Shown here piece by piece: positions 59,324 through 59,949 of a stretch of 64,000 bases of DNA (position 1 is the first letter of the stretch; each line of letters starts with the position of its first letter). Location: the NCBI RefSeq assembly GCF_000026545.1, contig NC_011601.1; one strand, written 5' to 3'. Made by a program: the position numbers and the translations under genes. Under the pieces are notes generated by a model. The model saw nothing but the letters and a program-made list of their open reading frames with translations, was not told the DNA's origin and made no database searches. The DNA comes from Escherichia coli O127:H6 str. E2348/69 (GTDB lineage Bacteria > Pseudomonadota > Gammaproteobacteria > Enterobacterales > Enterobacteriaceae).

Positions 59324-59530
59324 TTACCCATTAATCCCCGTTTGCACCGAAAGAATATGCTGCAAACTTTCTACCATTATGCGCCCCGACTGAAATAAGC
59401 CTTCCTGGATTTCGTTGTTAACATTCACAGCGTGAACCAGGGAGGCTAATAACACCACTTGCAAGAAGGCAAAAATAAACGCACCGATAATCATAATATG
59501 CGTCAGGGGGATTTTCCTTTGCTCCTTCAT
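59324..59530 (-). CDS. Hypothetical small membrane protein (single predicted TM helix)
   Basis: 68-aa ORF MKEQRKIPLTHIMIIGAFIFAFLQVVLLASLVHAVN...; its ATG overlaps the stop of the upstream lipoprotein gene (ATGA), implying translational coupling. Confidence 0.45.
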   Translation of the reverse strand: MKEQRKIPLTHIMIIGAFIFAFLQVVLLASLVHAVNVNNEIQEGLFQSGRIMVESLQHILSVQTGING

Positions 59531-59949
59531 TTTAAATAACCCACAAACTGGCCTTCTTTCATTAAGGCGACTTTTCCTGTGTGATGATAAACAATGACAT
59601 TATACAGACCCGACTGATAAACAGTAGCATCTTTATTGTCTTCATCAATTACACATAATGAATCATTGAGATAAGCAAAGTTCTTACTGCTCATTCTAAA
59701 GGTCATGCCAAATCCTTTATAAATGGCTTTCTTTGCCGCCTGGGCATGTTGTGCGGCTTCTGCATTTTTAAATGCCTGCGCCTCGGATGCACTTAAAATA
59801 GCCGTCTGACGCTGTTGTTCTGCGAGGTAACAGGTGTCATGGCTGACGCCCTGCGCCTGGCAATCTGCGATGCGGGAAGTGGGTGAACTACAGCCAGCCA
59901 GTAATATAACCGCCAGCAGGGAAAACGATTTAATGGAGCTATTCATCAT
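59527..59949 (-). CDS. Hypothetical lipoprotein
   Basis: 140-aa ORF with signal peptide and lipobox LLAGC (MMNSSIKSFSLLAVILLAGCSS); no recognised catalytic motif. Confidence 0.6.
   Translation of the reverse strand: MMNSSIKSFSLLAVILLAGCSSPTSRIADCQAQGVSHDTCYLAEQQRQTAILSASEAQAFKNAEAAQHAQAAKKAIYKGFGMTFRMSSKNFAYLNDSLCVIDEDNKDATVYQSGLYNVIVYHHTGKVALMKEGQFVGYLK

Follow-up and report, generated by a model that had tools for sequence, protein, structure and literature searches.

A two-module lipoprotein encoded behind a short trimeric autotransporter in Escherichia coli island OI-29 is a candidate adhesin accessory

What role is played by two small, tightly coupled genes that match no known family and lie directly behind an adhesin gene? 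The question is raised by a 64,000-nucleotide (nt) stretch of contig NC_011601.1 of Escherichia coli O127:H6 str. E2348/69 (hereafter the window, to which all coordinates refer unless a locus is named). Here, genes for a 140-amino acid (aa) lipoprotein (59527..59949, minus strand; WP_012578843.1, starting with MMNSSIKSFSLLAVILLAGC) and a 68-aa membrane protein (59324..59530, minus strand; WP_000664217.1) sit between cueR and ybbJ in the island named OI-29 in enterohaemorrhagic E. coli (EHEC) EDL933. The initial annotation took them for a pair acting in fixed stoichiometry, as in some toxin/immunity, lysis or envelope-stress modules. The comparisons described here lead to another answer: the gene pair is probably an adhesin accessory rather than a toxin or lysis module, and the lipoprotein may, as a tentative first choice among several readings, be an outer membrane-anchored periplasmic partner of the adjacent short trimeric autotransporter adhesin (TAA).

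The two genes share four nucleotides. On the minus strand (...TTA AAA TGA AGG AGC...) the ATG of the small open reading frame (ORF) overlaps the TGA stop of the lipoprotein gene at 59527-59530, and this ATGA junction, evident from both the ORF listing and the sequence, indicates translational coupling. A spacer of 53 nt (59950..60002, minus strand) separates the lipoprotein gene from the end of the upstream gene on the same strand (60003..61019), which encodes a 338-aa protein with a YadA anchor (PF03895, E=7e-12), i.e. a TAA. This protein aligns to AtaA-TM (9VNJ) and Hia (2GR7), and among solved structures its anchor is closest to AtaA-TM. No promoter-like site was found in the 53-nt gap, where site counts did not exceed those of shuffled controls, which is weak evidence; a weak hairpin in the spacer overlaps the autotransporter stop codon. 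The common strand and short gap are operon-like, as for the TAA helper SadB, whose gene lies in one operon with its TAA. To this extent the initial annotation, which had described two genes, an LLAGC lipobox, a single transmembrane (TM) segment, the ATGA overlap and an adhesin-like neighbour, was borne out.

The lipoprotein comprises an N-terminal and a C-terminal module (N-module and C-module, described below), and the genomic contexts of the family were obtained by scanning one genome per species, with additional look-ups for profile hits. A YadA-anchor hidden Markov model, built from neighbour genes, was run over all fetched loci. Of 38 assessable loci, 24 have a TAA-like gene directly upstream of the C-module gene and in the same orientation, so the co-occurrence survey proposed in the initial annotation gave a positive result. 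The linked loci are that of E. coli, 15 of the 25 species-level genome loci and eight of the 12 further assessable contexts (ten metagenome or phage-plasmid loci and two records from a plasmid collection). In about 800 kb of flanking DNA searched, no other TAA anchors were found except at locus L004, where a second TAA-like gene separates the TAA gene from that of the lipoprotein. The P/Q-rich repeat protein of L012, which fell into neighbour cluster 1, was discounted as low-complexity. The linkage recurs at various chromosomal locations (cueR-ybbJ, thiM, wrbA) as well as on phage-plasmids, and the linked TAAs range from 242 to 728 aa, with at least three anchor subtypes. Since linked members turn up in all parts of the C-module tree, the linkage looks ancestral, with repeated loss. 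Judged from these loci, the conserved partnership is that of the lipoprotein with the upstream TAA gene, not with the small protein.

Both members of the pair are real genes under purifying selection. The ORFs are annotated by PGAP in RefSeq, and the products are named only "lipoprotein" or "hypothetical." A stretch of 901 bp around the pair matches the E2348/69 chromosome at 100% identity. The region was found in 1,417 of 5,426 complete E. coli genomes, nearly always at >=95% identity, and at least 1000 contigs encode the identical 68-aa sequence. Comparisons within Escherichia gave dN/dS values of 0.03-0.06 for the lipoprotein gene and 0.05-0.40 for the small ORF. In the latter, the TM segment and C-terminal tail are invariant although synonymous sites vary, and substitutions are confined to the cytoplasmic N-terminus. 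In Pseudocitrobacter the small ORF retains about 35% identity, together with its length, TM segment, (V/I)HA(V/I) motif and ATGA overlap. The initial annotation had made its proposal depend on conservation of both ORFs, and such conservation is present.

The signal peptide and lipobox occupy residues 1-20 of the lipoprotein (59890..59949, minus strand). The lipobox LLAGC comprises residues 16-20, with L17, G19 and C20 (nearly) invariant in family alignment A1, and the lipidated Cys20 is followed by Ser at position +2 (CSSPT). An Asp at +2 is the inner-membrane retention signal of lipoproteins. It is present in SadB and in none of the 21 aligned members of this family; Ser or Thr at this position, in the absence of Asp, predicts sorting of the lipoprotein to the outer membrane. 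The N-module (residues 21-70; 59740..59889, minus strand) carries the motif SRMAxCQAQGxSxDTCYLAEQNRQ with the (near-)invariant cysteines Cys30 and Cys40, and in it this part is followed by an Ala/Gln-rich helix and then by a linker of highly variable length, often His-rich. In the C-module, which forms the approximately 70 C-terminal residues (72-140; 59530..59736, minus strand), Y111, G114 and Y121 are invariant and G125-K126 is also conserved. An AlphaFold2 (AF2) model based on the family alignment contains helices 23-32 and 37-69, that is, a hairpin plus long helix, at moderate confidence, and folds the C-module into an 8-stranded antiparallel barrel with a predicted local distance difference test score (pLDDT) of 85-93. 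According to this model, the protein is a lipid-anchored, disulfide-stapled helical hairpin joined to an 8-stranded beta-barrel.

Searches of Pfam, NCBIfam, PHROG and PADLOC gave no significant match for either protein, PDB sequence searches with the lipoprotein (single sequence and profile) gave none, and Foldseek against viral structures found nothing at E<=0.001. The initial annotation had recognised neither protein, and these results agree with it. A weak match to the Lpp alanine-zipper family was rejected, as it lies mostly in the signal peptide/lipobox and the adjoining N-terminal region.

The lipoprotein family is narrow, with 55 hits in a word-indexed search and 152 cluster representatives in an exhaustive profile search, and its close members are from Enterobacterales wherever the source names an organism. 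Among plasmids, matches came only from a few large plasmids and from segments or records that look chromosomal, and no TAA was found in the two contexts examined. Multi-repeat profile hits (P0201, P0224, P0229 and others) consist of Cys-rich or leucine-rich repeats and were judged to be spurious sums of weak matches. The locus L017 (CACSKA010000003.1), labelled Chryseobacterium sp. 18061, encodes a lipoprotein that resembles its Enterobacter sp. JUb54 counterpart to about 95%, in comparable surroundings; the assembly is probably mislabelled or contaminated.

The two modules also occur apart. The N-module alone forms a lipoprotein of about 65 aa in Aeromonas, Pseudomonas, Buttiauxella, Atlantibacter and Silvania, and even in the alpha-proteobacteria Skermanella and Falsiroseomonas. 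This stand-alone family (CSSPAQRMADCQAQGISKDTCYLAEQNRQ...AEKQAMENA; loci L030-L056, e.g., L035 7959-8168 and L038 7962-8159) is unnamed and gives only sub-threshold matches to TraV (22 bits), TrbK and Lpp-like families. TraV (TIGR02747), the name assigned by JGI to one family member, was rejected: the score was 19.5 bits against a cut-off of 44.75, and the surroundings contain no conjugation genes. The N-module is joined to a different C-domain in Lelliottia, Enterobacter soli and Kluyvera, one family member has a TolA-C-like domain in place of the N-module, and the C-module family occurs in both lipid-anchored and soluble periplasmic forms. At L029, L053, L057, L059 and L060 the modules are encoded by adjacent genes, a small lipoprotein gene followed by that of a signal-peptide protein, and at L066 a 56-aa gene lies between them. 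The split pairs of L059, L060 and L066 are located downstream of an intact TAA gene and that of L029 downstream of a TAA fragment; the pair of L057 follows a gene for a Lom-like outer membrane protein and that of L053 stands at a contig start. By this Rosetta stone comparison, the E. coli lipoprotein is a fusion of two parts co-encoded elsewhere, which argues that both act together at one membrane.

Related cassettes at L062 (1135-2027), L022 (2665-3280) and L067 (1385-1786) encode TolA C-terminal-like lipoproteins, one of them fused to the C-module, along with a coupled 68-69-aa tail-anchored protein and a conserved "MNTEQVKAWLMVHANGTEL" protein of about 60-74 aa. At L071 the corresponding cassette position is occupied by a YecR-like lipoprotein.

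The 68-aa protein has one strongly hydrophobic stretch at residues ~11-33 (59432..59500, minus strand; Kyte-Doolittle 19-residue maximum 2.65), preceded by a basic N-terminus (K2, R5, K6). By the positive-inside rule it is predicted to be an N-in/C-out inner membrane anchor, and the alignment suggests a periplasmic tail of about 35 aa (59327..59431, minus strand), amphipathic and invariant within Escherichia. Alternatively, the conserved (V/I)HA|(V/I) motif could be a signal-peptidase site.

The coupled partner of the lipoprotein is not the same throughout the family, and the view that the two proteins form an obligate pair of fixed stoichiometry is not supported. The 68-aa protein has homologs in Escherichia/Shigella and Pseudocitrobacter alone, i.e. 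in one C-module clade, while the lipoprotein is distributed widely across Enterobacterales. In the Rahnella/Serratia clade the partner is instead an unrelated soluble protein of 70-81 aa, the Pantoea conspicua/L062 clade has a tail-anchored one of 68-69 aa, in one enterobacterium the coupled product is a secreted protein of 211 aa, and many members of the lipoprotein family have no coupled ORF. Most of these alternative partners start at an ATGA junction with the lipoprotein gene. The 70-81-aa partner (MKKHHTDQFKHLPPEQQYxCLKML...TLSKF...VSW) is itself conserved and ATGA-coupled in Rahnella, Serratia and one Enterobacterales metagenome-assembled genome (L013 8408-8653 and equivalents at L016, L018, L023 and L024), and neither a family match nor a signal peptide was found in it. 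The same -3 (ATGA) overlap is present in 13-14 related loci despite differing lipoprotein C-terminal residues and downstream proteins, which indicates that a coupled small downstream product is a recurrent, selected feature. On this comparative evidence there is no universal two-protein complex across the lipoprotein family, and the 68-aa protein is a clade-specific, translationally coupled add-on.

The genes of OI-29 have been named z0638, z0639 and z0640 in the one experimental study published on the island (PMC5826968), and the primers given there allowed these names to be mapped onto the window. The z0638 quantitative PCR primer matches 59872-59891 in the lipoprotein gene, the gmrA cloning primers match 60996-61019 and 60003-60024 at the ends of the TAA gene (z0639), and the z0640 primer matches 61432-61453 in the divergent gene beyond it. 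By RNA-seq, all three genes were expressed in Dulbecco's modified Eagle medium and all were silenced upon HeLa contact (PMC5826968). The 68-aa ORF is not listed or considered in that paper, and its z0638 deletion and complementation constructs are therefore incomplete. Deletion of z0639 was reported to reduce fliA and flagellar expression, and its product was published as the transcription factor GmrA. This protein is an outer membrane autotransporter, so the mechanism proposed for GmrA needs re-examination. In the literature searched, z0638 is mentioned only in the OI-29 study and in a later review; we found no earlier description of how the protein is built from modules, of its split-gene versions, of the linkage to TAA genes across the family or of the coupled ORFs particular to single lineages.

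How could the lipoprotein serve the TAA? In the mechanism that we tentatively favour, the lipidated, disulfide-stapled hairpin would attach the protein to the outer membrane at its inner leaflet, and the beta-barrel, on its flexible linker, would engage a periplasm-exposed part of the TAA or a TAA assembly intermediate. Such engagement could stabilise or anchor the adhesin or aid its display, in the way that SadB serves SadA and TpgA serves AtaA. The small protein, most likely an N-in/C-out inner membrane protein, may modulate or tether the lipoprotein through its periplasmic tail of about 35 aa. The comparisons above show how the genes are arranged and conserved, how the lipoprotein is divided into modules, which fold class it has and how it is linked to TAA genes. 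The localisation of the lipoprotein, its physical interaction with the TAA and its effect on the adhesin are what we infer here from the genomic linkage, the operon-like spacing, the co-regulation of the OI-29 genes, the precedents of SadB and TpgA, and the predicted sorting of the lipoprotein to the outer membrane, in which the TAA barrel sits.

Several observations weigh against this mechanism. No TAA was found nearby in 14 of the 38 loci, including those of intact genes in Klebsiella, Pluralibacter, Erwinia and Enterobacter, so the lipoprotein must have a TAA-independent role or act in trans. The differing TAA anchor subtypes argue against one conserved interface for anchor binding. One prophage remnant has a Lom-like barrel rather than a TAA as the neighbour, and in E. 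coli BEC1-S17 the TAA gene is a pseudogene beside an intact pair. Deletion of the whole island left adherence to HeLa and Caco-2 cells unchanged, and deletion of z0638 left motility unchanged (PMC5826968). An AF2 model of a linker-fused homotrimer (three copies, 20-sequence paired alignment), a crude test and not a multimer model, gave a predicted template modelling score (pTM) of 0.27, and helix pLDDT fell to 30-40 from 60-75 in the monomer. This model lends no support to a SadB-like trimeric coiled coil; the family's own linker varies greatly in length. Finally, many of the contexts are mobile elements, and the linkage may reflect co-carriage of cargo.

This last point leads to a different account, in which the lipoprotein is independent envelope-protection cargo that travels with TAA genes on shared mobile cassettes, either as a periplasmic or membrane-tethered inhibitor like MliC, PliC and ACP or in the way of phage superinfection-exclusion lipoproteins. 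The occurrence of lipid-anchored and soluble periplasmic family forms, as with MliC and PliC, would fit it, as would the 14 loci lacking a TAA and the many contexts in prophage remnants and phage-plasmids, beside Lom-like outer membrane proteins and, at some loci, with Q antiterminator/holin, terminase or tail genes. We nevertheless consider it unlikely, if deserving serious attention. The lipoprotein has no match to the Pfam MliC family (PF09864) at E<=1, tblastn found no homolog in 50,697 deposited phage genomes, and co-carriage alone does not explain the fixed position and orientation after the TAA across different elements and at deep divergence. Membership of the MliC/PliC group was likewise rejected, as hhalign of the C-module profile against three PDB-verified sequences (E. 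coli MliC, Pseudomonas aeruginosa MliC and Brucella PliC) gave a probability of 0.2% (E 0.25); this insignificant profile-profile comparison places the MliC/PliC resemblance at the level of fold only.

The predicted topology, with a lipoprotein on the outer membrane and a small protein in the inner membrane reaching into the periplasm, combined with coupled translation, would also suit a trans-envelope signalling pair. The cassette includes a conserved divergent helix-turn-helix (HTH)-like gene, and the reduced fliA and flagellar expression reported upon TAA deletion would be easier to explain by an envelope signal than by an outer membrane protein that binds DNA. Such a relay is nonetheless improbable. 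The small partner is missing from most family members and elsewhere is soluble and apparently cytoplasmic, or tail-anchored with scant periplasmic part, so that a conserved periplasmic relay is unlikely; loss of z0638 did not affect motility, and none of the searches revealed similarity to NlpE, RcsF, SafA or MgrB. Least credible, and very improbable in our estimate, is the type of function considered in the initial annotation, namely toxin/immunity, lysis (spanin-like or bacteriocin-release-like) or a similar two-component killing module. The tight ATGA coupling, the superficial likeness of an outer membrane lipoprotein and an inner membrane protein to o- and i-spanins, and weak matches to the PHROG "Rz-like spanin" (E=0.028, 0.49) and the NCBIfam "T6SS immunity lipoprotein" (E=0.12) could be cited in its favour. 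These matches, however, are far below cut-offs and lie mostly on the signal peptide/lipobox and the adjoining N-terminal region (residues 1-28 and 9-56, respectively), and neither protein matches a PADLOC family at E<=1. Holin or endolysin genes are not found nearby, the gene order is opposite to that of Rz/Rz1, and the small protein has only some 35 periplasmic residues while the lipoprotein carries a folded 70-aa barrel. In addition, immunity pairs change together, whereas here the lipoprotein family is constant and its downstream partner non-homologous or missing, and about 1,400 E. coli genomes carry the genes constitutively and in intact form. PHROG and PADLOC searches yielded no toxin, immunity, holin or spanin signal.

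Around this core, the cassette contains further features. The divergent HTH-like gene (61387..61749, plus strand; z0640) encodes a 120-aa protein that matches Xre-type antitoxin HTHs only below threshold (MqsA, E=0.08; HigA-2, E=0.35), and its homologs occupy the same divergent position in 13 other loci, or 12 if L001, the E2348/69 RefSeq record, is not counted separately. About 70 nt past the small ORF, a terminator-like hairpin (59235..59251, minus strand) marks a possible end of the operon; it is weak and not above the shuffled background. A scan of 58400-61900 against Rfam revealed no credible RNA within the gene pair. Directly downstream of the pair, at 58522-59252 (minus strand), E2348/69 has ORF fragments of 68 and 170 aa, annotated as frameshifted, which derive from a 407-409-aa protein without a Pfam match; intact versions are encoded by E. 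coli 95-3192, Escherichia sp. E1V33 and E. whittamii, and EDL933 lacks the protein. On the far side of cueR, EHEC and some other E. coli (EDL933, L002 7211-12797; L063/L064) carry a type I secretion system together with a giant BapA/SiiE-like adhesin gene (OI-28), so the cueR locus is flanked there by two different adhesin islands. The OI-28 secretion system is absent from E2348/69, which keeps ybaT-glsA at that side of cueR.

To our knowledge, SadB and TpgA are the only dedicated TAA helpers described. A recent global survey of TAA helpers revealed no further ones; its filter demanded a YadA head domain and would have excluded TAAs without it, as the present one appears to be. If the favoured mechanism is true, the lipoprotein would be a third TAA partner, of a different fold, which would widen the view of type Vc secretion and anchoring. 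About one-quarter of complete E. coli genomes carry the cassette, including EHEC O157:H7, enteropathogenic E. coli, ST95 extraintestinal pathogenic E. coli and avian pathogenic E. coli lineages, and through this wide carriage its function bears on an unexplained, pathogen-enriched island. The N-module and C-module are two unnamed domains that could be defined as new protein families.

Comparison with known systems begins with the small protein, which resembles SafA and MgrB in size and predicted topology (basic N-terminus, one TM segment and short periplasmic C-terminal tail) but has no sequence similarity to them in any search. Like the Rz/Rz1 spanins, the pair is predicted to consist of an outer membrane lipoprotein and an N-in/C-out inner membrane protein encoded by overlapping genes. 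The spanin genes, however, belong to a lysis cassette in which the i-spanin gene precedes or embeds that of the o-spanin, while here the neighbours are the TAA gene, cueR and ybbJ and the lipoprotein gene comes first. The membrane protein of Rz/Rz1 has a long coiled coil, in contrast to the short periplasmic part and large folded lipoprotein of OI-29. Pfam O_Spanin_T7 matches the related stand-alone N-module lipoproteins at E ~0.1.

MliC, PliC and Neisseria ACP share with the C-module, as predicted, an 8-stranded beta-barrel fold. MliC lacks the N-module, and the likeness of YQSGLY...TGK in the C-module to the MliC/PliC loops SxSGxxY and YxxxTKG is an insignificant local motif resemblance. The Fusobacterium radD operon (FAD-I/RapA/RapB) likewise combines the gene of an autotransporter adhesin with those of a small lipoprotein and of uncharacterised small proteins (PMC7023056). 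RadD, from a different phylum, belongs to the type Va autotransporters, and the likeness is one of operon layout, by analogy.

The closest comparisons are with the TAA helpers themselves. SadB of Salmonella and E. coli (PDB 4C47), the helper of SadA, is also a small lipoprotein of enterobacteria whose gene shares an operon with that of a TAA; it has a lipid anchor, a long N-terminal helix and a beta-rich C-terminal domain, and it too has relatives unlinked to TAA (YajI, PDB 2JWY). The OI-29 lipoprotein matches neither SadB nor YajI in sequence or fold: the SadB gene lies upstream of the TAA gene and its product carries the inner-membrane signal Asp at +2 and combines a trimeric coiled coil with an Ig/MATH-like sandwich, while the OI-29 lipoprotein is encoded downstream of the TAA, has Ser at +2 and is predicted to end in an 8-strand meander barrel. 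TpgA of Acinetobacter (PDB 9VNJ), the partner of AtaA, attaches to the TAA barrel on its periplasmic face, in an A3B3 complex. It consists of a BamE-like (SmpA/OmlA) alpha-alpha-beta-beta-beta N-domain and a peptidoglycan-binding OmpA_C domain, neither of which was detected in the lipoprotein by Pfam or NCBIfam. In the TAA-linked subset of the TpgA family, 91% of the genes lie downstream of taa, and it is this position, directly behind the TAA gene in the same orientation, that the OI-29 lipoprotein gene shares with tpgA, as a likeness of position only and not of homology.

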